Virus record (IMG/VR): IMGVR_UViG_2885360797_000005
Length of the DNA stretch: 64,000 nucleotides
Direction: 5' to 3' (one strand)
From: a virus
Lineage: Duplodnaviria > Caudoviricetes
In this document: in pieces, positions 11,556 through 36,173 of the stretch
Position numbering within the stretch: the first letter of the stretch is position 1
How the letters are laid out: each line of letters starts with the position of its first letter
The notes under the pieces: model-generated
The model's database searches: none
Told to the model about the DNA's origin: nothing
The model's input: only the letters and a program-made list of their open reading frames with translations
Made by a program: the position numbers and the translations under genes

Positions 11556-13916
11556 ATGGAAGCTAAAGATAGAGAACAATTATATAACGATTTTCAAAAG
11601 GCATTCCCTCTAGAGAAATTGAAGGACATGACTTTGGAGCAATATACAAATTTGAACAGGGAAGATTCATTTTGCTATTGGCTTGAATCAAAGACATCCG
11701 AATTAGGGTCAATATGGGGAGGTGCCGCCTATAAATTTGGTATATTCAAGTTCGACAAATTTCCTAAGCAGGATAATGGGAAATATACACATGATGATAA
11801 CTATTCTTGGAGTAGTCGTTTAGGCAGTACATCAGAAGAGGCATTTAACAATGTCAAGAATGCAATAGTGAAGATAGCTGAACACGCCAGTAATGCACAA
11901 TGGAACGAAATTGAAAAGATAAACGAGTTGTGGCCTGTAACTACATGGAAGATTGCTTTCTTATATTCCAATATGTCCCTTGTCCCCATTTATAAACGGG
12001 ATATGTTGGACACATTGGCAAGATATTTTAAGATAAACACCCTTAAAGGGAAAAAGACATCTGACATACAGCAGTTCTTGATGAAGCAAAAAGGAGACAA
12101 AAACCTCTTTGTCTTCTATGGGGAACTTCTGAGTATTCTGGAAGCTGAAAATAAAAAGAAAACAGAAACAAAGCAGGAAATCAAATACTGGATTTGCGCA
12201 CCGGGTGACCGTGCAAGTAAATGGGATTTATGCCAACAAGATAACATCATCAGTATCGGATGGGACGAAATGGGCGATTATCGTCAATACCCATCTCTTG
12301 ATGATGTAAAGAAACGTATGCAGACAATCTATGATAAGCCTGACGCATCATTTAAGAATGACAGTTTGGCCATTTGGCAATTCTGCAACGAAATGACCCC
12401 GGGAGATATAATATATGCCAAAGCCGGACAAAAGAAATTTGTCGGTCGTGGCATTGTGATGTCTGAATATATCTATAACGAAGATTATTCAGACTACATG
12501 AATGTCAGAAGGGTTAAATGGACGCATATTGGAGAATGGGAAGCTCCGCATAATACAGTTCAAAAGACCCTGACTGACGTTACTCAATACACCAATTACG
12601 TTAGAACCTTGGAGGATATGTTTGAGGGTAAAGAATCCAGACGATATTGGTGGCTTGTGGCCAGTCCCAAAATATGGAGCTTTGACAAAATGAAAGTTGG
12701 TGAAGAACAAGATTATACGCTATATAATGATAATGGCAACCAACGACGGATATTTCAAAACTTTCTGGATGCTAAAGAAGGTGATTTGATAATAGGATAT
12801 GAAGCCACTCCTACAAAGAAAATTGTAGCCTTAGCAGAAGTGTCAAAGGATACGGATGACAAGTATTTCTATTTCAAAAAGACAGAAACATTGCTTTCTG
12901 CCATTGATTTCCTATCTATTAAGGAGAATCCTGTTTTTGCGGGGATGGAATTTTTCAAGAATATGAATGGTTCTTTATTCAAACTTTCCACAGATGAATA
13001 CAAGGAACTGATGGATGTCATTCGGGAACAGAATCCAATTCGTACGGATGTAAAGTCGCAAAAGTATGAAAAAGAGAATTTCTTGTCTGACGTGTTCATG
13101 AACGAAGAGGAATACGACAAATTAACTATGCTTCTCAAAATGAAGAAGAATGTAATTCTTCAAGGAGCACCCGGTGTGGGCAAGACTTATTCTGCCAAAC
13201 GATTGGCTTATGCCCTAATGGGAGAAAAGGATGATTCCCGAATAGAATTTGTCCAGTTTCATCAGAACTACAGTTATGAAGATTTTATCATGGGCTACAA
13301 ACCAAATGCAGAAGGAGGTTTTGAGTTGCGTAATGGTATTTTCTATAACTTCTGTAAGGTTGCTCAGAACAATCCAGAAAAGCAACATTTCTTTATTATT
13401 GATGAGATTAACCGTGGTAATCTGAGTAAAATCTTCGGAGAATTACTGATGCTGATAGAAAGTGATTATCGCGATACAGAAATCAAATTGGCTTATAAGG
13501 ACGAACTGTTTTCTGTCCCCAAAAATCTATACATCATCGGAATGATGAATACAGCTGATAGGAGTTTGGCTATGATAGACTACGCACTTCGTCGTCGTTT
13601 TAGCTTTTTCGAGATGAAACCCGGATTCGATTCTATAGGATTCATAAAGTACCAAAAAGAAGTTATAGGAGATACTTCTTTTGTTAAAGTCATAGATGGG
13701 ATTAAGAACCTCAACGACACAATAGAAAAAGAGTTCGGAAGAGGATTCTGTATCGGGCACAGTTTTTTCTGTAAGCCTAATACAGAAACATATACCATTG
13801 CATGGCTGAAGAATGTGATAGAGTTTGACATTAAACCCATGATTCTTGAATATTGGTTCGACAATGAAAAGAAAGCCCAACAGGAGATTGACAAACTAAC
13901 TCTTTTACTTCAATGA
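11556..13916 (+). CDS. mcrB: McrB-family AAA+ GTPase with extended N-terminal reader domains (EVE/PUA-like)
   Basis: GAPGVGKT, QFHQNYSYEDF, DEINRG, NTADRS, ALRRRF. Confidence 0.93.
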   Translation: MEAKDREQLYNDFQKAFPLEKLKDMTLEQYTNLNREDSFCYWLESKTSELGSIWGGAAYKFGIFKFDKFPKQDNGKYTHDDNYSWSSRLGSTSEEAFNNVKNAIVKIAEHASNAQWNEIEKINELWPVTTWKIAFLYSNMSLVPIYKRDMLDTLARYFKINTLKGKKTSDIQQFLMKQKGDKNLFVFYGELLSILEAENKKKTETKQEIKYWICAPGDRASKWDLCQQDNIISIGWDEMGDYRQYPSLDDVKKRMQTIYDKPDASFKNDSLAIWQFCNEMTPGDIIYAKAGQKKFVGRGIVMSEYIYNEDYSDYMNVRRVKWTHIGEWEAPHNTVQKTLTDVTQYTNYVRTLEDMFEGKESRRYWWLVASPKIWSFDKMKVGEEQDYTLYNDNGNQRRIFQNFLDAKEGDLIIGYEATPTKKIVALAEVSKDTDDKYFYFKKTETLLSAIDFLSIKENPVFAGMEFFKNMNGSLFKLSTDEYKELMDVIREQNPIRTDVKSQKYEKENFLSDVFMNEEEYDKLTMLLKMKKNVILQGAPGVGKTYSAKRLAYALMGEKDDSRIEFVQFHQNYSYEDFIMGYKPNAEGGFELRNGIFYNFCKVAQNNPEKQHFFIIDEINRGNLSKIFGELLMLIESDYRDTEIKLAYKDELFSVPKNLYIIGMMNTADRSLAMIDYALRRRFSFFEMKPGFDSIGFIKYQKEVIGDTSFVKVIDGIKNLNDTIEKEFGRGFCIGHSFFCKPNTETYTIAWLKNVIEFDIKPMILEYWFDNEKKAQQEIDKLTLLLQ

Positions 13917-14959
13917 GTGTGAATAAGAACATATTCATCAAGAATATCTACTATATGTTGGCATACGCTTTCCAAGAGTTGCAACGTAATCAGTATGAAG
14001 ATATTCAGAGTGAGGATTTCGACGAGATACATCAATTGCTTGCCGAAATTCTCATTCATGGTGTATCGTTTCAGTTAAAAAAAGGTCTGCACAAGGAGTA
14101 CATTTCTAAAACTGAATCTATAGCATCAGTGAAAGGGAAAATAGATATACCGGGCACTGTGCAGCACCTTATGCAGAGAAAAATGCGTATATCATGCCAG
14201 TATGATGAATTGTCAGAAAATTGTCTATTTAACCAAATCATTAAAACAACATGTGAGATACTTTTATCACATCCATCTGTAAAGACTAGCCAGAAATTTA
14301 CGATTAAACGTCTAATGCTTTTCTTTTCAGAAGTGAATGAAATACCCCCTCTTTCTATTAAGTGGAACTTGTTGCGTTATGATAGAAACAGTAGAACATA
14401 TCAAATGTTGCATTATATCTGCTTCTTCATTATTGACAATATGATACTGACAAGCCAAGAAGGGAAATTCAAAATGAGTCGCTTTTCTGATGAGCATATG
14501 TGCAGATTATATGAAAAGTTTGTCTTAGAGTATTATCGAAAGGAACATCCCGAAACAAAAGCCCGTGCAGCTCAAATCAAATGGAATATTGACGAACAGC
14601 TATCAACAACGGATATATTACCCATACTCCAAACAGACATCTATCTTACACTAAAAGATAGAACACTTATAATTGATACGAAGTATTATAGTCAAACTAT
14701 GCAGGAGCATTTTGATAAGGTAAGTATTCACAGTGCTAACCTTAACCAAATACTTGTCTATGTTTTAAATGAAGATGATAATATGCAGGGGAAAGTAGAT
14801 GGAATGCTGCTATATGCAAAGACAGATGAAGATATTGTACCTGATGGTCAATTAAAATGGAAGACTGGTAGCACTATATATTTCAGGACACTTGACTTAG
14901 GTGTTGATTTTAAGTATATTCGCAAACAACTGGATGATTTTTTAATCACTAAATCATAG
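13913..14959 (+). CDS. mcrC: McrC modification-dependent nuclease subunit
   Basis: IKNIYYMLAYAF start, TDI..IIDTKYY nuclease motif; 4-nt overlap with mcrB. Confidence 0.93.
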   Translation: MSVNKNIFIKNIYYMLAYAFQELQRNQYEDIQSEDFDEIHQLLAEILIHGVSFQLKKGLHKEYISKTESIASVKGKIDIPGTVQHLMQRKMRISCQYDELSENCLFNQIIKTTCEILLSHPSVKTSQKFTIKRLMLFFSEVNEIPPLSIKWNLLRYDRNSRTYQMLHYICFFIIDNMILTSQEGKFKMSRFSDEHMCRLYEKFVLEYYRKEHPETKARAAQIKWNIDEQLSTTDILPILQTDIYLTLKDRTLIIDTKYYSQTMQEHFDKVSIHSANLNQILVYVLNEDDNMQGKVDGMLLYAKTDEDIVPDGQLKWKTGSTIYFRTLDLGVDFKYIRKQLDDFLITKS

Positions 14960-14984: not shown

Positions 14985-15659
14985 ATGAAGAATAAAATGT
15001 CAAGAGCACCCATCTTTACCATCAGCAGGCTCCGTATGGGGACAGACGGACATGGAGTAACCACGCTTGTCGCTTTCATGGGGTGCCCACTCAAATGCAA
15101 GTATTGCCTGAATGAGAAATGCCATGAGCCGATATACGAAGATGATGGAAAGACTCTGAGGAATGGTATTATGCTGCTTACTCCAAGTGAGTTGTATGAT
15201 TTGGTAAAGATTGACAACATCTATTTTCAAGCAACAGACGGAGGCATTTGTTTTGGAGGTGGAGAACCGACATTATATCCAGAGTTTATTGAGGAATTCT
15301 GTGACCTTTGTAACGAAAAATGGAAGATTACAATAGAAACTTCGTTGCGCTGTTCCGGTGAAACTATCAGGAAATTAAGCAAGGCAATAGATTACTGGAT
15401 TGTGGATGTCAAATCTTTAGATTCGGATACATATTCTTCATACACACGTGTATCATCTATGATAGAACAGCATTTGACGATACTGAAACGATGCGTTACG
15501 GATAAACAAGCAACGATTAAAGTGCCTATCATTCCCGGATTCAATAACGAAAGTGAAGCAGATAGAACCGCCGAAGACATCAAAAAAAGGTTTAGGTTTA
15601 CCAATGTAGTTAAGATTAGATATATAACAAAATATTGTTGTCCAACAAAAATTGATTAA
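14985..15659 (+). CDS. Radical SAM protein, glycyl-radical activase-like (short form)
   Basis: DGHGVTTLVAFMGCPLKCKYCLN (CxxxCxxC), GGGEPT, IETS, VDVK, PIIPGFN. Confidence 0.88.
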   Translation: MKNKMSRAPIFTISRLRMGTDGHGVTTLVAFMGCPLKCKYCLNEKCHEPIYEDDGKTLRNGIMLLTPSELYDLVKIDNIYFQATDGGICFGGGEPTLYPEFIEEFCDLCNEKWKITIETSLRCSGETIRKLSKAIDYWIVDVKSLDSDTYSSYTRVSSMIEQHLTILKRCVTDKQATIKVPIIPGFNNESEADRTAEDIKKRFRFTNVVKIRYITKYCCPTKID

Positions 15660-15704
15660 TGAAATAACTCCAGTTGCAACATAGGTTTACAAAATAATAG
15701 AAAT

Positions 15705-16583
15705 ATGACATCAAGAAAGAATAGCGATGAACACTATGTCATCGATTTATGCGATGAAGTTCTTGGTTTAAAAGCATCAAGGCAGCAGACTTTTGACTTT
15801 CTGCGTGGCGATGGGAATCCCGGAAAGAAACTTCCTGTTGATGCGTATTATCCCCAATTAAAACTCGTTGTAGAATATAAGGAGCGGCAACACACAGAAT
15901 CGGTGGCTTTCTTCAACAAGAAAACCACTGTGAGTGGTGTATGTCGCGACGAACAGCGACGTATTTATGACCAGCGACGCAGGGACGTTCTGCCCAAGCA
16001 CGGTATTAAACTGATTGAAATATCATACACTGACTTTAAGTATGACAACCATAAACGCCTCATTCGTAATCGACAAGCAGACATGGCTGAAATACGAAGA
16101 ATACTTTCAAAGACTCAAAATGAAAATCAAAAAGTTGAACATAAAAATACAGATAAGCAGACAAAAAAAGATGAAAGAAACAATCTAAGGAGTAAAACAC
16201 CTGTAAAAGATGGAAGACATACTTGGGTTTACTCTGCATATAGTAAGTTTGGCTGCCTGTTTATATTGGCAGTTGTCTTTTGTACACTATTGATTTCATC
16301 TTATCTCACTATATCTGTTTTCGATTTTAACGAAGGTTTATCATTAATAATTATGTTTTTCTCTTTATTTGTAGTATCATTCATTTTTCATCACTACACA
16401 ACAGGGGTGGATGAAAAGTTGGATAAGGAAAAATATAAAAGAAAAGAAGTATCTTCTATTTATAGTAGTACGAACCATAATCCTGTCTGCTGTCCCCAAT
16501 GTGGAAGTCATACTATAGGTCTGTCAGATAATGGAGGATTCGTCTGTATAGACTGTGGGGTGCAGTGGTATCAAACATATTAA
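15705..16583 (+). CDS. Putative PD-(D/E)xK nuclease with two TM segments and a C-terminal Zn ribbon
   Basis: PVDAYYPQLKLVVEYKERQH; two hydrophobic stretches; CPQC...CIDC. Confidence 0.65.
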   Translation: MTSRKNSDEHYVIDLCDEVLGLKASRQQTFDFLRGDGNPGKKLPVDAYYPQLKLVVEYKERQHTESVAFFNKKTTVSGVCRDEQRRIYDQRRRDVLPKHGIKLIEISYTDFKYDNHKRLIRNRQADMAEIRRILSKTQNENQKVEHKNTDKQTKKDERNNLRSKTPVKDGRHTWVYSAYSKFGCLFILAVVFCTLLISSYLTISVFDFNEGLSLIIMFFSLFVVSFIFHHYTTGVDEKLDKEKYKRKEVSSIYSSTNHNPVCCPQCGSHTIGLSDNGGFVCIDCGVQWYQTY

Positions 16584-16715
16584 CTATCATAGAAGAACTG
16601 TTTCGGGATTGTGGAGGGAGTCCGTTCCTTATCCAATTATGCCTCAAAATCATAAATTTTCCACAAAAAAGTTTACCAGACAGCGATAATTACAGAACAT
16701 TATAAAAATAAGGTC

Positions 16716-17861
16716 ATGAGTACAGGAAAAGAAAAATGCGAAATGCTAAAAGCAATCAGAAAACAGATTGCAGAACGATACAACTTAGAGTACACACCAT
16801 CAGAATGCACTCACAAAGGAAATTGCCTTGGTACATGCCCTAAATGCGATGCCGAACTCCGTGACCTTCAAGAACAGTTAGAACGAAGAGGAATAACGGA
16901 TATTGATTGGAATGTGGAAATTCCCGAAGAGGAAAGTAGTGTAGATCCAGAGGATTCTGCCCGCTCTATTCTGCAAGGTGATGTTGAATCACCGAAAGAG
17001 CCTGAATTGATAAAAGTAACAATGGGGATGCCCGCTCCTCCATACCTATATAGAGATAAAAAACGCGTTCTCTACAAGGAGTGTCAGGTAGCAGGTATTA
17101 CGTTCCATAACCTTGAAGAAGTTTGGGATGAGTTATATGAGGGGGCTGAACTTGCATTAGTCAGAGAAAAAGACAACAAGCACGACAAATATGCTATTGC
17201 CGTAGCCTTGGCCGATGATTATGATGGGGAACCGGATGACTTTGATTTTGACTACATCTTGGGATATGTACCTCGGTCGGATAATAAGGATTTGGCTGAC
17301 ATGATGGATATGGGTTGGGCAGAAGCTTTTGAATGTGAGCTTAGTCAGGTCAACGGTTCTAACCCCTATAAGGGAAGTCTGTGGATGAAGATATACATCG
17401 TCAGCAAAGACGAGGAAGAATATGAGAATACAGAACACCTGTTGCATGCCATGGAACTGGATGATGAAGCATACGAAGAGTTTACCACTTGCATAGAAAA
17501 TCATGGCTGTGCTTATTTTAGGTGGGGAGGTTTCCAACCGTGTGAATACCACAATTTCCCAAAGAAAGGCGATAAAGTTGTATTCATACACAAAGGAGAA
17601 AATATCTCAGAATTATATCTAATGTATTGCATAGCTGTAGGCGATGATAATGCAGCCTACTTCGTAGAGGACAAAACCTCATTACATGCTATTGATGACA
17701 GTTGCTATTATGTGTTCACTACCATTCACGGCCCACTAAAGGTAAGCAATAATCAAATTTCTTTTCTTGAAGATGAGATTGTTTGCGATATTCAAGCTGA
17801 TGAATACCTTTCAGAAAATGCTTCGACCAAACTACAACTATTATTTGATAGCAGGAAATAA
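16716..17861 (+). CDS. Cys-rich N-terminal domain + HIRAN domain protein
   Basis: C..LKAIRKQIA..ECTHKGNCLGTCPKC; HIRAN pattern VAGITF..LVREKDNKHDKYAIAV..LGYVPR. Confidence 0.8.
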   Translation: MSTGKEKCEMLKAIRKQIAERYNLEYTPSECTHKGNCLGTCPKCDAELRDLQEQLERRGITDIDWNVEIPEEESSVDPEDSARSILQGDVESPKEPELIKVTMGMPAPPYLYRDKKRVLYKECQVAGITFHNLEEVWDELYEGAELALVREKDNKHDKYAIAVALADDYDGEPDDFDFDYILGYVPRSDNKDLADMMDMGWAEAFECELSQVNGSNPYKGSLWMKIYIVSKDEEEYENTEHLLHAMELDDEAYEEFTTCIENHGCAYFRWGGFQPCEYHNFPKKGDKVVFIHKGENISELYLMYCIAVGDDNAAYFVEDKTSLHAIDDSCYYVFTTIHGPLKVSNNQISFLEDEIVCDIQADEYLSENASTKLQLLFDSRK

Positions 17862-17863
17862 AT

Positions 17864-19270
17864 ATGATAGGCACAATTATTGGTGATTTGGCGGCTTGGA
17901 CGTATGAGAATGAGAGAGAAACATTTTGGAATCAACTCATATCATACAACTATGATAAAGTTGAGTTGTCCCTATATGCTCATGCTTATTTGCAAGCAGT
18001 CAGCATAAATGTACTTAGTGTACCCAATCAAAATGTCAACATAGTAAGGAATACAGAATGGTCACCCGAAGAATGGCTAAGAGTTGGCGGACAGTGGTTG
18101 ATGTGGCAACTTATGTGTGCTTGGAATGACAACTTGGTTTACCCGAATGGTAACGAGAAACTTCCTTCTGTAGAAAAGGAGGAATACTATGCTCGAATGT
18201 TTATGGTAGGACTTATCAGAAAACTCCGACATGGCTACACTAAAAGCGATGCTTATCACTCTGACGAAATGTTTGTAGATTTTAGCAAACATTGGAAATG
18301 GAAACCTTGGCAAGAATCTATTTCAGAAAAAGATAATTATAGCATCCTTACCTGTGTGTTTCGTGCTTGGGACTCTTTCTATAGAGGCTTTGATTTCACC
18401 TCCTCCATTCATAACGCAATGAAATGGGAAGGAAATAGACATCTTATAGCTATGCTTACCGCTTCGTTTGCAAGTGCCATGTATGGTTGCCAATACAATC
18501 TTATCAAGAAGAAATTTGCGAAGAACGGACAAATAAGCCACTTGTTTGAATTGTATTGCTTAGGCGAACATTTTGGCTATCATCATGCCTTATGTCACGA
18601 AATGATGGACGAAAACAACGGATTCAGGACATTTTACCCCAAGAATAGAGCTTTAACAAACGTGGAACGTCATTTTTGGCAAAGTGTAGCAAACCCTTTT
18701 GACCGTCTTATATTTTCAGAATCAGATTATAAAAACATAATGAAGTGCTCACCGACGGGATGGGATAACAGATATGGCTTATATTTGGATGATGGATGGT
18801 TCTATGTATATAGGAGTGGATGCCTAATAGGACGTTTCATGTTAATAGAAGAAGATGGCTATTGGCTGATAAAGAACGTACAATTATCGGGCGAACAACC
18901 ATGGAGAGAGTTTTGTAATGCCTTATTCTGTGCGTTGACAGAAAGCTGCAACTTACGTGGATTTTCAGGAAAATATGAAGATTATGCTTCAATATTCAAG
19001 TATTATCAAGGAGAACTGACCTGTCCAGAAAAGTGGAAAAATAACGTATCAGGAAAGTTTTGGCACGGAGAAATGATGTTCTGCACTAATCATATCAGCA
19101 TTGAAGAGTGGACGAAAAAAGCCGAGAATGCTCTCAAAAATATGGAACCCGATAAACAGAAATACGCAAAATCCATGTCTCTTCGTCAGTTTGGTGTGAT
19201 ATTATTTATTGAAACCCTATATAGTAAATGGTGTTCTTACGATAATATGGATTGGATATATGAGTATTAG
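17864..19270 (+). CDS. Degenerate ADP-ribosylglycohydrolase-like multidomain protein
   Basis: MIGTIIGD start and F..SIHNAM..EGNRHLIAMLTASFASAMYG resemble ARH motifs, but the GDSDT acids are absent. Confidence 0.55.
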   Translation: MIGTIIGDLAAWTYENERETFWNQLISYNYDKVELSLYAHAYLQAVSINVLSVPNQNVNIVRNTEWSPEEWLRVGGQWLMWQLMCAWNDNLVYPNGNEKLPSVEKEEYYARMFMVGLIRKLRHGYTKSDAYHSDEMFVDFSKHWKWKPWQESISEKDNYSILTCVFRAWDSFYRGFDFTSSIHNAMKWEGNRHLIAMLTASFASAMYGCQYNLIKKKFAKNGQISHLFELYCLGEHFGYHHALCHEMMDENNGFRTFYPKNRALTNVERHFWQSVANPFDRLIFSESDYKNIMKCSPTGWDNRYGLYLDDGWFYVYRSGCLIGRFMLIEEDGYWLIKNVQLSGEQPWREFCNALFCALTESCNLRGFSGKYEDYASIFKYYQGELTCPEKWKNNVSGKFWHGEMMFCTNHISIEEWTKKAENALKNMEPDKQKYAKSMSLRQFGVILFIETLYSKWCSYDNMDWIYEY

Positions 19271-19328
19271 ATTGATTCTATTCAAATAGATTTCGCTATA
19301 AATCACAAAATCACATTCTTAAAAGGCT

Positions 19329-19336
19329 TATATTTG
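19329..19336 (+). promoter_or_regulatory. -7 promoter box for recD2
   Basis: TATATTTG (TAnnTTTG) 29 nt before the ATG; an identical box lies at 21605-21612 before the next gene. Confidence 0.55.
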
Positions 19337-19364
19337 CAGATTATAAGGAATTAGTTGATAGCAT

Positions 19365-21593
19365 ATGCAAAAGCTCCGTTGTGTAGTAGAACGAATCACC
19401 TACCAAAATCCCGAAAACGGGTATTCGGTGATGAGGGTCAAGGTCAAAGGATACAATGACCTTGTAACCCTTGTCGGCAATCTGTTGGAAGTGCCGGCAG
19501 GGAGTGTTCTGCTGTGCGAAGGGGATTGGAAAGTGGATAAGCGATACGGCAACCAGTTTGTAGCGGAGAGTTGGGAAGAGGTCATGCCCGCCACCATCTA
19601 TGGCATAGAGAAGTACCTGGGCAGCGGACTGGTGAAAGGCATCGGCCCGAAATTCGCCCAACTTATCGTCAGTCGTTTCGGACTGGAAACCATCGATGTG
19701 ATTGAAACCGATATTGAACGGCTCCACGAAGTGCCCGGCATCGGCAAGAAACGTGTGGAGAAGATTGCCGAGAGTTGGGAGAAGCAGAAGGACATCAAGA
19801 ACGTGATGCTCTTCCTGCAAGGTTATGGAGTCAGTACCGCATACGCTGCCAAAATCTATCGTCAATACGGAAAAGAAAGCATTGATACCGTCAAGGCCAA
19901 TCCCTATAAACTGGCAGATGACATCTGGGGCATCGGTTTCAAGACAGCCGACGGCATAGCCGCCAAGATGGGTTATGAGAAGAACGACCTTCGTCGTTGC
20001 AAGAGCGGCATCACCTACACACTCAGCCACCTTTCCGAAGAAGGACACGTCTATGCCGAAGAGGAACAACTCCTGAATGCGGCCATCGAACTCTTGAAGG
20101 CGGACGAAGAACCCATCCGTCAGGCTATGTCAGAAATGTTGCAGAGTGAAGACCTGATACAAGACGGTGACGCACTCTATATGCCACCCTTCTATTATGC
20201 AGAAGTAGGAACAGCCAACCGTCTGAGCGGATTATTGAATAATGCGGACGGAAATCTCTTCCAAAAAGCATTAGACATCGCTGCCATCTCCAAAGCCTCC
20301 GGCATAGAGTATGACGAAGTGCAGGTGGAAGCCATCCGTGAAGCAGTCGCCTCCAAGGTTATGGTGCTGACAGGTGGTCCCGGAACGGGAAAGACCACCA
20401 CCACACAAGGAATCATCGCAGCCTTGAAGAGCATGGGACTGAGCATCCTGCTTGCCGCACCTACCGGACGAGCCGCCAAACGAATGAGTGAAGCGACAGG
20501 GATGGAGGCAAAGACCATCCACCGCCTATTGGAATACAATCCGAAAGACGGTTACAAACGCAATGACGAGAACCCGTTGGAAGGGGATGCCCTTATCGTG
20601 GACGAATGTTCCATGATAGACATCATTCTGATGAACAACCTGATGAAAGCCTTACCAACGAATATGCGCCTGGTATTGGTGGGCGACATCGACCAGTTGC
20701 CCAGCGTAGGTGCCGGAAACGTACTTCGTAACATCATCGACTCTGAGAGAATACCGGTCATCCGCCTGACACGCATCTTCCGACAGGCACAGACCAGCCG
20801 TATCGTCATGAGTGCCCATGCCATCAACAAGGGACAGTTCCCCGACACCAGCAACGGCAAGCAGACCGATTTCTTCTTCATGCAGATAGAAGAACCGGAA
20901 CAGGTGGCGGAAACCATCGTCAAGTTGGTAAAGGAACGATTGCCCAAAGCATACAACCGCCCGGCAAGCGACATCCAAGTCCTCACACCTATGCAACGAG
21001 GGGTGGTAGGTGCAGCCAATCTGAATATAGCCCTACAAGCCGTTCTGAACACCTCCCAGTTGGTACTGACCAGAAGTGGTTATTCCTTCCGTCAAGGCGA
21101 CAGAGTGATGCAACTCCGCAACAATTATGACAAGGATGTGTTCAACGGTGACCTGGGATATGTAGAGAAAGTGAACTTGGAAGATAGAACCCTGCAAGTG
21201 GACTTCGATGGCAAGTTAGTGGAATACGAAGTTTCGGAACTGGACGAGCTGACCTTAGCCTACGCAACAACCATCCACAAGTCGCAAGGCTCGGAATATC
21301 CCATCGTGGTGATGCCTGTCCTGATGACGCACTACGTGATGCTCCAACGCAACCTTATCTATACAGGTATCACCCGTGCTAAGAAGATTTGTGTACTGGT
21401 AGGAACAAAGAAAGCATTGTCTTTCGCCATCCGCAATATGTCGGTGCTGAAACGCAACACGAAATTGAAAGAACGGCTGAATCCGGCATTAACACAACCC
21501 GGCAAAGCCACGTCCCCCAAAGAATATATGCTTCCGACACAAACGGAGTACGGCATGGTAGCAGAAGAGAAAACTGAATACGGAAAGAAATAG
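19365..21593 (+). CDS. recD2: RecD2 (SF1B) ATP-dependent DNA helicase
   Basis: HhH GIGPK repeats, GGPGTGKT, APTGRAAKR, DECSM, GDIDQLPSVG, TIHKSQGSE, YTGITRA. Confidence 0.95.
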   Translation: MQKLRCVVERITYQNPENGYSVMRVKVKGYNDLVTLVGNLLEVPAGSVLLCEGDWKVDKRYGNQFVAESWEEVMPATIYGIEKYLGSGLVKGIGPKFAQLIVSRFGLETIDVIETDIERLHEVPGIGKKRVEKIAESWEKQKDIKNVMLFLQGYGVSTAYAAKIYRQYGKESIDTVKANPYKLADDIWGIGFKTADGIAAKMGYEKNDLRRCKSGITYTLSHLSEEGHVYAEEEQLLNAAIELLKADEEPIRQAMSEMLQSEDLIQDGDALYMPPFYYAEVGTANRLSGLLNNADGNLFQKALDIAAISKASGIEYDEVQVEAIREAVASKVMVLTGGPGTGKTTTTQGIIAALKSMGLSILLAAPTGRAAKRMSEATGMEAKTIHRLLEYNPKDGYKRNDENPLEGDALIVDECSMIDIILMNNLMKALPTNMRLVLVGDIDQLPSVGAGNVLRNIIDSERIPVIRLTRIFRQAQTSRIVMSAHAINKGQFPDTSNGKQTDFFFMQIEEPEQVAETIVKLVKERLPKAYNRPASDIQVLTPMQRGVVGAANLNIALQAVLNTSQLVLTRSGYSFRQGDRVMQLRNNYDKDVFNGDLGYVEKVNLEDRTLQVDFDGKLVEYEVSELDELTLAYATTIHKSQGSEYPIVVMPVLMTHYVMLQRNLIYTGITRAKKICVLVGTKKALSFAIRNMSVLKRNTKLKERLNPALTQPGKATSPKEYMLPTQTEYGMVAEEKTEYGKK

Positions 21594-21627
21594 TATCATC
21601 ATATTATATTTGCCCCAAAAGTAGATT

Positions 21628-22635
21628 ATGAAACACGCTGAATTTAAGGCTATAGCCAGACAACATCAAATAGATTTCAAGGTCAATGACCCGGAGATTA
21701 ACATTGCCGCTGATAGATTTCCTATCCGTACTATTCGGAAGAACGGCAAGAAATATAAGATAGAGGTAAAAAGTTCTTTAACTTGGAAGGATTGCCGTGA
21801 TGAGCATAACCTTTATCGCATTTTCTTCAGCGGATTCCGAAAAGAGATAACGGAAGAAGTTGACAAAGAAGCTTCTTTGACAAAAGGGCAAATGGTTACA
21901 AATCTTTTGCGCAGCGAACACATCCCATACAACGTATTCTTTCCCATGCGACATGACCTGGATGGGACAGCCCGCCTGTTCAATCGTATTCTCGGAGAGG
22001 AACGAATAGCTACCATCAGCCAGATACTTGTTGAGCATAACCCCGGAGGGCTTAAAGATGGCACATCCTTTGATGTTTACATCGAATATGCTCCCATGGG
22101 AGCAAATCCCGGTGAGAAGGGCGGCATTGGCATTGAGGTGAAATACACGGAAAAGGAGTATCTTATCAAGCATGGCACGAAAGAATGGGAAGAAACACAT
22201 AATGCTTCCGGCATTCATCTTGCAGACAATTACAGCAACCCAAGCAATGCCTGCGGCTGGTTCAAACCGGAGTTTATAGCAGACGTACCGTTTGAAGACA
22301 AAGAGAGGATGACATCCCATGTGACAGCCAACCGTTACCGCCAGATATGGCGCAACCACATTCTTGGTGCATCCATGATACTCGGATTGTGCGAGAACCA
22401 AGATGATAAACTTACGGAGTTTACAAGTCTCACGGTTTATCCCAAAGGAAACGGGCATTTCTCGGAAATCTGGGGCGAATACGAATCCAAGCTGACTCCG
22501 GCCGGATTGCAAACATTCAAGCACATCACCTACGAAGATCTGTTCCCCTTGATGCAGGAGTGTCTGAATGAAGCCAACATTCCTAATCTCAATGAGTGGA
22601 TGGATTACCTTAACAGACGATATATCATAAAATGA
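21628..22635 (+). CDS. Putative restriction-endonuclease-fold protein (PGN_0703-like)
   Basis: NLLRSE, TSFDVYIEY..IGIEVKYTE, YRQIWRNH. Confidence 0.72.
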   Translation: MKHAEFKAIARQHQIDFKVNDPEINIAADRFPIRTIRKNGKKYKIEVKSSLTWKDCRDEHNLYRIFFSGFRKEITEEVDKEASLTKGQMVTNLLRSEHIPYNVFFPMRHDLDGTARLFNRILGEERIATISQILVEHNPGGLKDGTSFDVYIEYAPMGANPGEKGGIGIEVKYTEKEYLIKHGTKEWEETHNASGIHLADNYSNPSNACGWFKPEFIADVPFEDKERMTSHVTANRYRQIWRNHILGASMILGLCENQDDKLTEFTSLTVYPKGNGHFSEIWGEYESKLTPAGLQTFKHITYEDLFPLMQECLNEANIPNLNEWMDYLNRRYIIK

Positions 22636-23225
22636 GAATTTTACACCTATCAGATACTCACGGTTGCCATCATCGGCTATACGACTTGCCCGAAGCGGAC
22701 ATTCTTGTCCATTCTGGTGATTTCACTATGTCAGGAAGCGAGAAGGAAGCCCTTGACTTCTTGAACTGGTTTTGTGACCTCCCATATCCGCACAAGATAT
22801 TCATCTGTGGTAACCATGATGAATGTCTGTATGGGGCAAACATCAGTGGCCTTAACAACAATGTCCATTATCTATGCAATTCCGGTTTGGAAATTGAAGG
22901 TTTGAAGTTCTATGGTGTACCCATGTTCATGAGTGACTGCATCAGTGACCGACAAAACCGGAACTATGCCGAAATACCTTCCGATACCGATGTGTTGATA
23001 ACGCATTGTCCGCCATACGGCATATTAGACTTTGATGATAACATAAACTACGGCTCGGAAGAATTGTTGCAACGGATTACACAGATTCATCCACGGCTGC
23101 ACTTGTTTGGGCATATACATATACAACATGGAATTACCCATAATGGCGCAACCACATTTTCCAACGGTGCCATTATGAACGTAGATTATTCTCAACTCAA
23201 TGATGCTAATCTGATAGAGCTATAA
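22632..23225 (+). CDS. Calcineurin-like metallophosphoesterase
   Basis: SDTH, HSGD, GNHD, THCPP, FGHIH; 4-nt overlap with the upstream gene. Confidence 0.93.
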   Translation: MRILHLSDTHGCHHRLYDLPEADILVHSGDFTMSGSEKEALDFLNWFCDLPYPHKIFICGNHDECLYGANISGLNNNVHYLCNSGLEIEGLKFYGVPMFMSDCISDRQNRNYAEIPSDTDVLITHCPPYGILDFDDNINYGSEELLQRITQIHPRLHLFGHIHIQHGITHNGATTFSNGAIMNVDYSQLNDANLIEL

Positions 23226-33151: not shown

Positions 33152-33833
33152 CGCACCATATTAGCAGCAAGTGTACCGGATAGAAAGCATAAAATCCATA
33201 CTTTGCGACATTGCCCTTGATAAATCCTCTTGCGCCATCGTATAAGAATATGGTCATACAAGCCAGCAAAGCACCGATGCTGCCATAGTGCATCATCAAT
33301 GGAAAAGCACAAAGAAGCTGCATCATTCGACCATAGGGAAAAGGAAGATTATCGTTTTGATTTCGTAACAGATTGAAAACTAAAATCATCAATATCCCTC
33401 GCCACTCATAATCCACTCCTGACCAAGTGGCAAGATAAGCAATAGAGAGAATAGCAATCCCACAAAGGACGCTATTCTCTTTCAGTTTCTCCAGTACAGC
33501 CAAAGCCACCACACCCAAAGCCAACGTGAACATCACATTGTGCGTACCGTCCGCTCCATTCAACAGATACCAAGAGACTTCGCTGATAACGGCAAATACC
33601 AATAGCCGTGTAAAGTACCTCTTTCTGTTATGCGTATAAGCGAAGCCTTCCGCTATCAAGAAGGCAAACACCGGGAAAGCGATACGACCAACACAGCGCA
33701 TGGCCTCGTAAAGTGTAGAATTGTTATCCATCAGAAAATAAGCACAATGGTCTATTACCATAGATACAATGGCGATAATCTTTAGTACACTACCGCTAAA
33801 AGTGGGTATCTTCGCAAGTCTTTCCATAATCAA
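33129..33833 (-). CDS. traX: TraX-family membrane protein
   Basis: LKIIAIVSMVIDH, GRIAFPVFAFLIAEGF, FYAFYPVHL. Confidence 0.9.
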   Translation of the reverse strand: MIMERLAKIPTFSGSVLKIIAIVSMVIDHCAYFLMDNNSTLYEAMRCVGRIAFPVFAFLIAEGFAYTHNRKRYFTRLLVFAVISEVSWYLLNGADGTHNVMFTLALGVVALAVLEKLKENSVLCGIAILSIAYLATWSGVDYEWRGILMILVFNLLRNQNDNLPFPYGRMMQLLCAFPLMMHYGSIGALLACMTIFLYDGARGFIKGNVAKYGFYAFYPVHLLLIWCVITFLAH

Positions 33834-36139
33834 CTCATTCCAAGCAGTTCCTTGACCATATCCTCGACCTCCTGATTAACACGTTTGAAATTGCGGTTCA
33901 GCATTATCTCTTTCTCACGGTCATTCTTAAACTCATAGATTTTAGGGAGAACCACATAGTGGTCTTCCTCCATCTTAATCTTCTTCATATCGAAGTGGGT
34001 CTTGCAGAAATACTTCGTGGTCTTGAACTCCTCCGACTGCTCAATGTCGAAGCTGTTAAGCATCTTGTCATCGGTAGCGGTAAAGTCACGTGCCGCCTGA
34101 CCTGCCAGCCAACCGGTAGCCATGTCCGCTATCTTGGCTGCCGGAACAAGGTAGTCCATCTTCTCCGAGATGGTGGTAGATACCTTTTGGTCGTTGATGG
34201 AGATTGAGCGTGAGGTCTGCTTCGCCTTGCCGAACACGTCATTCTGTGCCCATTCCAATGTTTCCTTGTTACGAGCCGCCCCCATGAAGATATTACCGCA
34301 AGTGGTGATAATCTTCTGCATACCCACCTTGCCATAGTCCGCTTCCAACTGAGGCAACTCTTGGAAACCCAATGTGACGGCTACCTTGTTGGAGCGTGCC
34401 GTACCAATCAGCCGGTCTATCTTATGGAAATACAGAGTGGGCAGCTCGTCCACGATGATGCTTACCGGGATGTTCCCCTTAGAGTTCACTCTTGTAATCA
34501 GTCGGTTCAATACCAGAGCGTTCAGCGAACCGATTACCTGTTCCTTTTCCGGGTCGTTGGCTATGACTAAATAGCTCGGATGCTCCTTGTCAGAAATCTT
34601 CAAGTCGAAGTCATCACCCGTAAATACCCAATAGGCTTCAGGAGATACCAATCTTGCGGCATTGACACGAAGCGTACCAACCATACCTTCCAACTGGTCA
34701 TTCGCCTTGTTCTCAAAAGCACTCTTGAAGGGAGCCATTAGTGAGGCTATCTTGTCATCCTGCATCAGGATGTTGAACACCTGGTCGTAAGACCTACCAA
34801 GGAAGGACAATACGTGCGGCATATCAGAAAACTCGCCCGTAATGGTGTCCGGCTCAACCTCATTGCCGTGTTCATCCTCATACCAGCAGCGTTCAATCTT
34901 AATCAACCTTTTGGTTCTGTCCTTATAAGAAAAGCCGTTCAAGTCCACAAACATCCTATCCTCATCCGTAGAAACATCATTGCCGTTCTCATCAACAAAG
35001 TCTAACACCACGTTTCCCTTATCGTCTATGGCATTGAAGTCATCCCAATTCCGAATAACAATCTCCAGTTTCTTTCCCTCCAGTAGAATATAGCGTTTCA
35101 ACTTCTTTCCGTTCCTGAACCCGACAGGGTGGAAGTTTACAAAGAAATAGATAATCGCTGCCAGGAAGTTCTCTGCCGAATTGGTGAAGAAGGCTTCCGA
35201 GCCGCCTTTCTTCTCGCCACCTCCCTTGTTCAAGGATGCCAGCAAAGTAGCAGCCGTTTCAGAAGCCGCCGCCAAGTCCGGGATATACTTCCGTTGAATA
35301 GGATTGATTCGGTCTGAGTATTCCACATCCGTAAAGTTGATGGTACGGAAACCACAATTAGCTGGAAGCCTTCCGGCTTTCCGATTCTTGCAGAACTGAT
35401 AGAAAAGCGTCTTTGCCAATGTCGGGTACTTGAAATCGTACACCATCATGGCAAACCCTTTTGCGGCGTGTTGTCTTATGAACGGGTCAATGATACCGAA
35501 AGACTTACCCGAACCAGGAGTACCGAGAACAATCGTGCCACGGAACGGGTTGATGATATTGATCCAACCCTTGTGCATCTTCCGTTTCCAATAGTATATC
35601 ATCGGTATGTTTACCGAGTAGTCGTTATTGGCAAGCACTTCCGACTGTTGGAAGGACTCATTCTCGAAATTGAAACGGTCATCACCAACCTTATAGTTGT
35701 AATACTTGGCGATGCCATCCAATCCCTGATGCACCAGCATGGTACCTACCACAGAACATACGGCATAGAGAATACGATTGGCAGGGAATCCCATCCAACT
35801 CATTCCGAAGTCCATCTTGTGAAAGAGGAAACAAAGTCCGACAAGGGTCAATCCGACTAATACAGGGTAGATGACCATTGTCTTCACATTGAACTTCAAT
35901 GCCTTCTTCGCCTTTGTGCCAATACACACCACACAGATGCAGACCAGTTCCACCATCTTGCAACCCGAAACGGACGTGAACACGGGGAATCTGCCTAACA
36001 GGTCAAGAATAAACTGCGTAATACGGTTATCTGCCGCAATGGGCAGATTCATAATTATCTCAATGATGAGAAAGATGTAGATGCAGCTACGGAAGTAGTT
36101 ATACATCTGCTGCTGTTCCCTTGTTTCTTCAAATGCCAT
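33830..36139 (-). CDS. Type IV coupling protein (VirD4/TraD; Bacteroides MobC-like)
   Basis: N-terminal TMs, FNFENESF, INPFRGTIVLGTPGSGKS, DELPT, TARSNKVA. Confidence 0.92.
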   Translation of the reverse strand: MAFEETREQQQMYNYFRSCIYIFLIIEIIMNLPIAADNRITQFILDLLGRFPVFTSVSGCKMVELVCICVVCIGTKAKKALKFNVKTMVIYPVLVGLTLVGLCFLFHKMDFGMSWMGFPANRILYAVCSVVGTMLVHQGLDGIAKYYNYKVGDDRFNFENESFQQSEVLANNDYSVNIPMIYYWKRKMHKGWINIINPFRGTIVLGTPGSGKSFGIIDPFIRQHAAKGFAMMVYDFKYPTLAKTLFYQFCKNRKAGRLPANCGFRTINFTDVEYSDRINPIQRKYIPDLAAASETAATLLASLNKGGGEKKGGSEAFFTNSAENFLAAIIYFFVNFHPVGFRNGKKLKRYILLEGKKLEIVIRNWDDFNAIDDKGNVVLDFVDENGNDVSTDEDRMFVDLNGFSYKDRTKRLIKIERCWYEDEHGNEVEPDTITGEFSDMPHVLSFLGRSYDQVFNILMQDDKIASLMAPFKSAFENKANDQLEGMVGTLRVNAARLVSPEAYWVFTGDDFDLKISDKEHPSYLVIANDPEKEQVIGSLNALVLNRLITRVNSKGNIPVSIIVDELPTLYFHKIDRLIGTARSNKVAVTLGFQELPQLEADYGKVGMQKIITTCGNIFMGAARNKETLEWAQNDVFGKAKQTSRSISINDQKVSTTISEKMDYLVPAAKIADMATGWLAGQAARDFTATDDKMLNSFDIEQSEEFKTTKYFCKTHFDMKKIKMEEDHYVVLPKIYEFKNDREKEIMLNRNFKRVNQEVEDMVKELLGMS

Positions 36140-36173
36140 ACGTTACTTTGTTTAATCTAAAATTATCACTCGG

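Follow-up and report, generated by a model that had tools for sequence, protein, structure and literature searches.

ARG-centric systems have been predicted to act against viral ADP-ribosylation (Iyer, Burroughs, Anantharaman and Aravind, 2022; PMC9503650, section 3.8). In addition to ARG, they contain a phosphatase that is sometimes calcineurin-like, a rapidly evolving restriction endonuclease (REase), helicases and, optionally, NADAR or Macro proteins; Nudix or WYL-HTH regulators, which are optional as well, are found in more than 42% of them (PMC9503650). An association with HIRAN was noted for the ARPP protein, and the organisms named are actinobacteria, planctomycetes and proteobacteria (PMC9503650). 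Here we describe a locus that shares part of this content and lies in a 64,000-nucleotide stretch of the IMG/VR virus record IMGVR_UViG_2885360797_000005 (hereafter the window, which stands for the whole stretch). Four co-oriented open reading frames (ORFs) on the plus strand lie directly 3' of mcrC (13913-14959, plus strand). The ORF coordinates agree in this with a first-pass annotation of the same DNA, which had read the four genes as an orphan radical S-adenosylmethionine (SAM) activase, a membrane nuclease, a Cys-rich HIRAN protein and a degenerate ADP-ribosylhydrolase, together forming one undescribed defence or counter-defence module.

The conserved unit is smaller than this. It consists of two genes, which encode a single-cluster, PflA-like radical SAM enzyme and at least one protein that starts with a five-Cys head domain of ~58 residues. 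We propose that the enzyme matures the head-bearing protein and that, in the subtype represented in the window, the matured protein would work at DNA ends in concert with ADP-ribose-related proteins; taken as a whole, we give this reading somewhat better than an even chance.

A radical SAM enzyme paired with five-Cys head proteins

The head (16716-16889, plus strand) makes up residues 1-58 of the protein of 381 amino acids (aa) encoded at 16716-17861 (plus strand), and its cysteines are C8, C31 and C37-x3-C41-x2-C44. In an alignment of 125 sequences (A2), R15, G39 and E47 are invariant in addition to the five Cys. Neither Pfam nor NCBIfam has a model for the domain, which matches 2635 representative clusters among 1.84 billion proteins, always at the N-terminus, in proteins of 70-630 aa. 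AlphaFold2 (AF2) models the isolated head as two helices around a Cys loop, with a predicted local distance difference test (pLDDT) score of 72; in the model of the full partner the head helices fall at residues 3-21 and 42-57. A likeness to the zinc ribbon and Gly loop of NrdD (Gly ~15 residues past the last Cys) was considered and dropped, as the region models as helix and has no RVxG[YF] motif.

Scanning one genome per species for the head pattern gave at least 590 confirmed places, and 79 loci were retrieved (identified below by L numbers, as are loci from the other searches). Found via the head alone, 69 of these 79 loci carry a radical SAM gene of the same family on the same strand, within 300 bp in 62, and each locus has one to seven head-bearing genes. 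Of the ten loci that lack the enzyme, most are truncated at a contig boundary or keep a remnant of its gene (L028, L032). Hosts belong to the Bacteroidales (Prevotella, Bacteroides, Muribaculaceae, Hoylesella and others) and to the Clostridia (Lachnospiraceae, Oscillospiraceae). The genome that contains the window has exactly one head gene and one radical SAM enzyme of the family. Searches with the radical SAM protein of the window returned no further genome from 300 drawn phylum-wide and three from 300 drawn order-wide. Even sampling passes over the gut genera in which the gene occurs, and the scan with the head pattern was far more productive. These data bear out, at the level of genomic pairing, the earlier suggestion of a partnership between the Cys-rich domain and the radical SAM enzyme. 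The four genes of the proposed module are not one conserved unit.

Individual loci show the pair both multiplied and in decay. Tandem arrays of five to seven head genes, of the type with a signal peptide and TonB_C described below, occur in rumen and gut Bacteroidales (L058:920-8029, L033:2521-6753, L091:843-7194); those of L058 and L033 stand behind a single radical SAM gene, and no enzyme gene lies within the stretch retrieved for L091. All that L032 (5840-6001) keeps of the radical SAM enzyme is a 53-aa remnant between a NADAR gene and a HIRAN gene, and L028 (5917-6345) encodes an in-frame fusion of the head domain to the ~28 N-terminal residues of the enzyme.

The enzyme of the window (14985-15659, plus strand, 224 aa, with a single [4Fe-4S] motif) matches Pfam Radical_SAM and Fer4_12 and has 3653 relatives. 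Its best NCBIfam matches are activases of glycyl-radical enzymes (GREs), as the first-pass annotation had it, and every score lies below the curated cut-off: 112.8 bits against 174.35 for TIGR02494 (PFLE_PFLC) and 75.5 bits against 231.75 for PflA (TIGR02493). The relatives in L076 and L011 likewise fall below the GRE-activase cut-offs. The nearest solved structures are PFL-AE 3C8F (E 2.4e-8) and 3CAN. Because C34/C38/C41 (CX3CX2C), DGxG, G92-G93-E94-P95 (GGEP) and D141/K143 are all invariant in 75 family members, the enzyme looks intact; the last ~9 codons of its gene derive from an inserted cassette that is described below. Outside these motifs little is added to the core. No second Cys cluster was found in the 75 members, which share one further conserved Cys (C109); a SPASM/twitch auxiliary-cluster domain is absent, the protein stopping ~30 residues past the core; and the ferredoxin insert typical of most GRE activases is missing.

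Such a protein could be a spare activase for a chromosomal GRE, given that its best family matches are GRE activases and that the genome encodes PflB and NrdD. No GRE was found within the window, which lies on contig C322, and the only Gly_radical matches in the genome are PflB (C27) and NrdD (C291). PflB, however, has a bona fide PflA elsewhere in the genome (303.8 bits against 231.75), and NrdD has NrdG (144.4 bits against 126.1). With these dedicated activases above cut-off, neither enzyme needs the one in the island. The family scores under every GRE-activase cut-off, moreover, and its constant neighbour is a head-domain gene and not a GRE, so that service to a chromosomal GRE, a possibility raised together with the original annotation, appears extremely unlikely.

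The partners divide into a large exported class and a smaller soluble one. In 110 of 110 non-HIRAN proteins a hydrophobic segment follows the head, ending in a lipobox-like Cys at about residue 80 in 66 of them and in AxA-like sites in the others, features from which we read the segment as a signal peptide. Past the signal peptide these majority partners have a linker and then TonB_C (one to three copies), CarboxypepD_reg-like or unannotated domains. The radical SAM enzymes that accompany soluble or HIRAN partners form one clade (support 99); as judged from these sequences, enzyme clade tracks partner class.

The HIRAN-type partner and a proposed maturation

HIRAN domains bind DNA 3'-OH ends. 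In the partner encoded by the window, the head is followed on the plus strand by a disordered acidic linker (16890-17054), a HIRAN domain (17055-17408, residues 114-231) and a putative PUA-like domain at the C-terminus (17427-17858, residues 238-381) that resembles YTH, ASCH and EVE domains. The HIRAN assignment is secure at the level of sequence family (PF08797, 35.9 bits, above the gathering cut-off of 24.7) and of fold, with matches to 3k2y (Z 15.1, root-mean-square deviation 1.7 over 102 residues), HLTF (Z 10.6) and Rad5 (Z 9.6). The AF2 model of the 381-aa protein has an overall pLDDT of 81.6, which drops below 50 for linker residues 69-113. For the PUA-like domain no sequence-family match was found, and its fold matches, which agree with one another and span residues 238-381, have middling Z values (Mmi1 YTH, 9.1; YTHDC2, 8.4; ZmASCH, 8.3; THYN1-5mC DNA, 7.9; McrB-N, 6.9). 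Based on the model, the partner is a soluble subtype composed of the head, a disordered LxGD linker, HIRAN and a PUA-like domain with the predicted fold of modified-base readers. The five-Cys start, the acidic linker and the HIRAN domain that had been read from the sequence are thus all present.

The short Gly motifs remarked on earlier in this linker, ILQGDV (16968-16985, residues 85-90) and VTMGMP (17016-17033, residues 101-106), turn out to be a family-wide feature. The motif [LIVMFT]-x-G-[DE]-[VIPLMA] occurs 173 times in 129 partners, 3.8-fold the 45 ± 6.6 copies found in composition-preserving shuffles, and 101 of the 129 partners have at least one copy where ~38 would by chance; most copies fall at residues 80-160. 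Within the HIRAN class the motif takes the form LxGD, and G88 is near-invariant (at least 90% of the sequences) in a linker that is otherwise unalignable. If the enzyme recognizes or modifies a particular site, this Gly-containing motif is the most promising candidate. If a glycyl radical were to be formed, G39 of the head and G88 of the linker would be candidates only.

We propose that the head, which would probably bind a metal or an Fe-S cluster, serves the radical SAM enzyme as a docking site, and that SAM-derived radical chemistry then modifies the partner post-translationally, the linker motif being the most plausible site. In the majority subtype the head precedes the signal peptide, and export would remove it, following the logic of a maturase and its leader. 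The modified protein of the HIRAN subtype would have its place at DNA ends or modified bases and would work there with proteins that remove ADP-ribose or, in the window, may bind it; recruitment of these proteins is expected to fall to a domain with the signature CxYYxGE, considered below. The likely setting would be a conflict over ADP-ribosylated nucleic acid, with the pair serving either in defence or in the protection of transferred or phage DNA; repair would be a further possible outcome. If the two proteins are indeed enzyme and substrate, gut and rumen anaerobes would possess an extensive and so far unstudied branch of radical SAM chemistry directed at proteins (thousands of clusters, at least 590 places), whose recognition domain no database yet models.

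It is also possible that the roles are distributed differently, and this is the main rival to maturation. The head may be an accessory Fe-S or zinc subunit that targets the enzyme or feeds electrons to it, in which case the enzyme would act on a nucleotide or nucleic acid, in a viperin-like or DNA-modifying reaction, recruited to DNA ends by HIRAN and the PUA-like domain. C37-x3-C41-x2-C44 with C8/C31 does resemble a cluster-binding site, the enzyme has neither a ferredoxin insert nor an auxiliary Cys cluster, and the partner is predicted to carry two nucleic-acid-binding domains. Weak viperin-type matches point the same way (PADLOC pVip, partial, E 3.6e-8), but against the viperin family NF038283 the enzyme scores 26.1 bits, far under the cut-off of 180. 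The occurrence of up to seven different head genes beside one enzyme fits one enzyme with many substrates better than one enzyme with many subunits. In addition, every one of the 110 non-HIRAN partners has all but the head behind the signal peptide, which leaves such a subunit no cytoplasmic target. We consider the accessory-subunit arrangement unlikely and continue to favour maturation of the partner by the enzyme.

ADP-ribose-processing proteins, the inserted cassette and the island

The gene that follows the partner after 2 bp (17864-19270, plus strand, 468 aa) encodes a probable, divergent member of the ADP-ribosylglycohydrolase (ARH) family. The protein has no Pfam match at E 0.1; 24 of 32 aligned relatives match PF03747 (ADP_ribosyl_GH, best 9.2e-12), and its profile finds DraG/ARH marginally in the PDB (E 0.1-0.6). 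Where the canonical ARH P0441 has GGDSDT, the window protein has EGNRHL and most relatives have GD[RK]HL; TDD is missing as well, in a weak stretch of the alignment. "Degenerate ADP-ribosylhydrolase" is therefore a fair label, and the protein is probably catalytically impaired, acting as a binder or an altered enzyme. The ARH-like gene is a recurrent, non-obligate partner of the pair. The pair lies just upstream of it in L140, L145, L152, L153 and L158, where the ARH-like proteins are 35-45% identical to that of the window, and L015 and L028 also have an ARH-like gene 3' of the pair. A conserved cargo block that includes an ARH-like gene is found on Bacteroidales conjugative elements (marked by a type IV coupling protein, T4CP, and lysozyme) in L101-L148, for example L101:5069-9407; its other contents are a WYL-WCX regulator, a 238-aa gene, ExoX-like_C and often a 513-aa PAD_porph-like protein.

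A wider connection to ADP-ribose runs through the CxYYxGE domain. Some HIRAN-clade radical SAM enzymes have a conserved N-terminal extension of ~120 residues (QCRYYNGE...W.YE..WV), in one copy in L024, L026 and L029 and in at least two in L025. The domain measures ~100-120 residues, has the longer signature QCRYYNGE...W.YE..WV...DGDKTPLT.KAL..NRY.HW and is without a Pfam model. A search with it returned more than 45 clusters of a 338-aa fused radical SAM enzyme and the C-terminus of the canonical ARH P0441 (E 1.7e-34; PF03747 in the same protein, E 4.5e-39), as well as proteins that consist solely of two copies of the domain. Occurrences of the domain, whether fused or in tandem, include L024:1532-1906, L025:1013-2200, L031:10-1389 and L032:4196-5827, and proteins P0439 and P0441-P0448. 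Fusions to a further unannotated domain (FVFGSN..G.HG.GAA) were also seen, in P0439 and P0442.

A hidden Markov model (HMM) of CxYYxGE extends this to the neighbours of the pair. It matches the NADAR proteins directly 5' of the radical SAM gene in L031 or of its remnant in L032 (E 2e-21 and 4e-26), the ARH directly upstream of the radical SAM gene in L021 (E 1.9e-10), the ARH that immediately follows the HIRAN gene in L023 (E 8e-4) and, at the position of the C-terminal domain, the ARH-like relatives in L152, L153 and L158 (E ~3e-4). The C-terminal ~97 residues of the ARH-like protein of the window (18977-19267) are probably a CxYYxGE domain too. In the reverse direction, an HMM of the ARH-like C-terminal domain gave no significant match against the loci (best E 0.013), its top five being CxYYxGE proteins. 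In ~15 of 21 HIRAN-type loci, ARH, ARH-like, NADAR or CxYYxGE flanks the radical SAM enzyme or forms part of it, and no such element was seen in the signal-peptide-class loci; the count is descriptive and not a test, the loci being partly related mobile elements and not independent events. A link to ADP-ribose-processing proteins is real and, with the CxYYxGE fusions and the ARH and NADAR neighbours, wider than the first-pass annotation could show. This HIRAN variant of the pair, with its ADP-ribose link, is new, and apparently for the first time it connects a radical SAM enzyme to the NAD/ADP-ribose conflict network, via a domain shared with ARH and NADAR.

Besides the nature of that count, several observations weigh against maturation or its ADP-ribose branch. 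A fold search with the head alone gave a best Z of 5.2, to generic helical hairpins, and no significant match, and the linker motif does not resemble the glycyl-radical RVxG[YF]. Plain chromosomal surroundings with a HIRAN pair and no ADP-ribose genes were seen in L011 (after rplQ), L020, L022 and L027. Aligning the CxYYxGE profile by hhalign to the C-terminus of the ARH-like family of the window gives E 5.3e-4 at a probability of only 30%. Among 79 metagenome loci with an ARH-like relative, ~70 lie on conjugative elements without the pair. Finally, we infer which residue is the target, what metal the head contains and even whether the partner is a substrate or an accessory subunit. A bolder version of the proposal would hold that this is an unrecognised form of protein maturation, in which the enzyme reads a portable metal-binding head and modifies an LxG[DE]V motif both in exported proteins and in a sensor of DNA ends or modified bases, and in which CxYYxGE is an adaptor that couples the enzyme to ADP-ribose hydrolases acting on ADP-ribosylated DNA in phage or conjugative conflict. 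We put this forward tentatively and think it rather unlikely to hold as a whole.

The same distribution of contexts bears on whether conflict is involved. The pair might be a housekeeping module for maturation or secretion control in strict anaerobes, with the island and the ARH-like neighbour reflecting shared cargo hot spots. It does occur in plain chromosomal contexts (rplQ-pair-eno, gidB-pair), most of the family has TonB_C or other exported passengers, and elements of the same family that lack the pair commonly carry ARH-like, PAD_porph and WYL genes. A shared hot spot does not, however, explain why CxYYxGE occurs in fusions with the radical SAM enzyme as well as with ARH and NADAR, and the association spans both the divergent ARH-like proteins noted above and different ADP-ribose hydrolase folds. 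HIRAN-type pairs, moreover, recur beside McrBC, GmrSD, type I restriction-modification and CBASS, and on IMG/VR contigs classed as viral (L178:7312-9212, L179, L180). A purely housekeeping module therefore seems to us distinctly improbable. Given that the pair also occurs after rplQ and beside gidB, and in far more numerous versions with a signal peptide and TonB_C, a role in defence or counter-defence, as first suggested, may apply to the HIRAN subtype only. As to the viral contigs L178-L180, they show a weak terminase-large-subunit match (E 2.4e-7) 3 kb upstream, and L180 has a 1052-aa helicase downstream.

The remaining gene of the four, between the enzyme and its partner, has a different history. 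It encodes a protein of 292 aa (15705-16583, plus strand) with a weakly nuclease-like N-domain, two transmembrane (TM) helices and a C-terminal zinc ribbon, and it lies on a cassette (15637-16688) that interrupts the 3' end of the radical SAM gene and measures ~1052 bp against contiguous pairs. By blastn, window 15005-15636 corresponds to L007 8021-8652 and window 16689-17861 to L007 8640-9816, segments that are adjacent and slightly overlapping in L007. An imperfect 13-bp direct repeat brackets the cassette (ataacaaaatatt at 15624-15636 and attacagaacatt at 16689-16701), and its right copy is identical to the uninterrupted sequence of L007; no recombinase was found on the cassette. At 84-87% nucleotide identity the cassette recurs at L015 10857-11763 and L099 9190-10160, there after the ARH-like gene, and a homologue of the 292-aa protein is present in only two other loci, at different positions. 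In all other HIRAN-type loci examined that have an intact radical SAM gene, the radical SAM and HIRAN genes are contiguous. The TM/zinc-ribbon gene is thus a secondary cassette insertion outside the conserved module. Of its earlier name, "membrane nuclease", the first half stands, in that two hydrophobic helices (and the zinc ribbon) are readable in the sequence. For the second half the matches are all sub-threshold (PvuRts1I-like_N, E 0.0017; PADLOC mREase_II, E 1.8e-4; Atlas DUF559 lead, 0.79), a D46...E57-Y-K59 string can be read, and a PDB sequence search and Atlas gave no usable relative.

This insertion is what decides against all four genes being one defence system with the membrane nuclease as its effector. 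Their common orientation, intergenic gaps of 45, 132 and 2 bp and the absence of any Bacteroidetes-type promoter box found between them would be expected of such a system, and L015 has a nuclease-TM homologue near the pair and an ARH-like gene. The nuclease-TM gene, however, is absent from all other pairs examined, takes other positions in L015 and L099, and in the window sits on a discrete repeat-flanked cassette that splits the pair. Most ARH-like genes also lie without the pair. The insertion largely refutes the four-gene system, which we regard as highly improbable. A tidy four-gene "operon" on a mobile element can evidently be a mosaic of a conserved pair, an inserted cassette and a loosely attached accessory gene.

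The genes around the pair place it in a restriction and defence island. A type I hsdR gene and McrBC lie upstream, the latter consisting of McrB (EVE + AAA_5) and McrC by Pfam (11556-14959, plus strand) and ending 25 bp before the radical SAM gene; this order of McrBC and radical SAM gene recurs in L020 and, with a few genes between, in L152 and L153. The McrB homologue itself (11556-13916) has EVE and an N-terminal region matching PADLOC PD-T4-1/PDC-S02 ahead of its AAA_5 motor. Downstream, all on the plus strand, are a RecD2 helicase (19365-21593; Pfam and PADLOC matches) with its own TAnnTTTG box at 19329, an REase-ARP nuclease (21628-22635; PF22558, E 1.5e-21; also typed PDDEXK_13) with a TAnnTTTG box at 21605, and a calcineurin-like phosphoesterase (Metallophos, 22632-23225; Pfam and PADLOC matches). 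The PADLOC matches of this row include PDC-S10 (E 6e-78). RecD2 is also found 3' of the HIRAN gene in L031. A homologue of the coupling protein of type IV secretion systems at 33830-36142 places the island on a conjugative element of gut Bacteroidales, which carries the enzyme and partner module as cargo. In two island variants (L007-L010; L015) a zinc-type alcohol dehydrogenase-like gene (ADH_N, 344 aa) lies directly 5' of the radical SAM gene (L007:6955-7989, L015:4954-5988), with a conserved 178-aa gene 5' of it.

Comparison with known systems

Neither PADLOC nor NCBIfam names a system for the four genes, PADLOC giving weak, domain-level matches only (pVip and PDC-M03B). The earlier statement that the locus matches no named system holds in this respect; it does not hold for the part formed by the ARG-type protein, helicase, REase-ARP and phosphoesterase, which resembles the class predicted in PMC9503650. 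The row at 17864-23225 (ARH-like, RecD2, REase-ARP of PF22558, phosphoesterase) is the likeness, as is the lack of a visible ADP-ribosyltransferase, and NADAR as an alternative and WYL regulators beside ARH-like genes in related elements (40 metagenome loci) fit the same scheme. These four genes are possibly one ARG-centric module. In the window no WYL or Nudix regulator was found with the WYL-WCX protein of related elements as query. Radical SAM proteins (0 occurrences), the five-Cys head and CxYYxGE, on the other hand, go unmentioned in PMC9503650, the window belongs to a Bacteroidales conjugative element, and the Asp motifs of its ARH-like copy are absent or altered. A literature search covering the head, the pairing, the CxYYxGE domain, radical SAM with HIRAN, TonB/cysteine-rich/Bacteroides, ADP-ribosylglycohydrolase, and GRE activase with lipoprotein found no description.

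On the side of the partner, the HIRAN domains of HLTF and Rad5 and the bacterial lp_0118 (PDB 4XZG, 6L8O, 3K2Y) share the fold of the window domain at high Z. Unlike these, the HIRAN domain described here shares its polypeptide with a five-Cys head and a PUA-like domain and has a radical SAM enzyme as genomic partner; its binding to DNA is predicted.

For the enzyme, PflA and the other GRE activases (TIGR02493/TIGR02494; PDB 3C8F/3CB8) are the closest relatives in both sequence and structure and belong to a similar size class. They share with it a single CX3CX2C, an N-terminal DGxG, the GGEP SAM motif and a protein partner encoded next door. The nature of this partner sets the two apart: the neighbour of the window enzyme is a ~58-residue five-Cys head and not a glycyl-radical domain, there is no RVxG[YF], and a single enzyme can have up to seven partners, which are exported proteins or a HIRAN-PUA protein.

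Maturases of ribosomally synthesized and post-translationally modified peptides (RiPPs) and the anaerobic sulfatase-maturating enzyme offer the other comparison. Here the differences are that the window enzyme is without SPASM/twitch, a RiPP recognition element or an auxiliary cluster, that the "leader" is a folded Cys-rich domain, and that the putative substrates are full-size proteins of 130-630 aa. The organization is nevertheless alike. One radical SAM gene lies beside its substrate gene or genes (putative in the present case), the N-terminal region is shared and what follows is variable, a short motif is repeated in the variable part, and the conserved N-terminus of the majority subtype would be lost at export.

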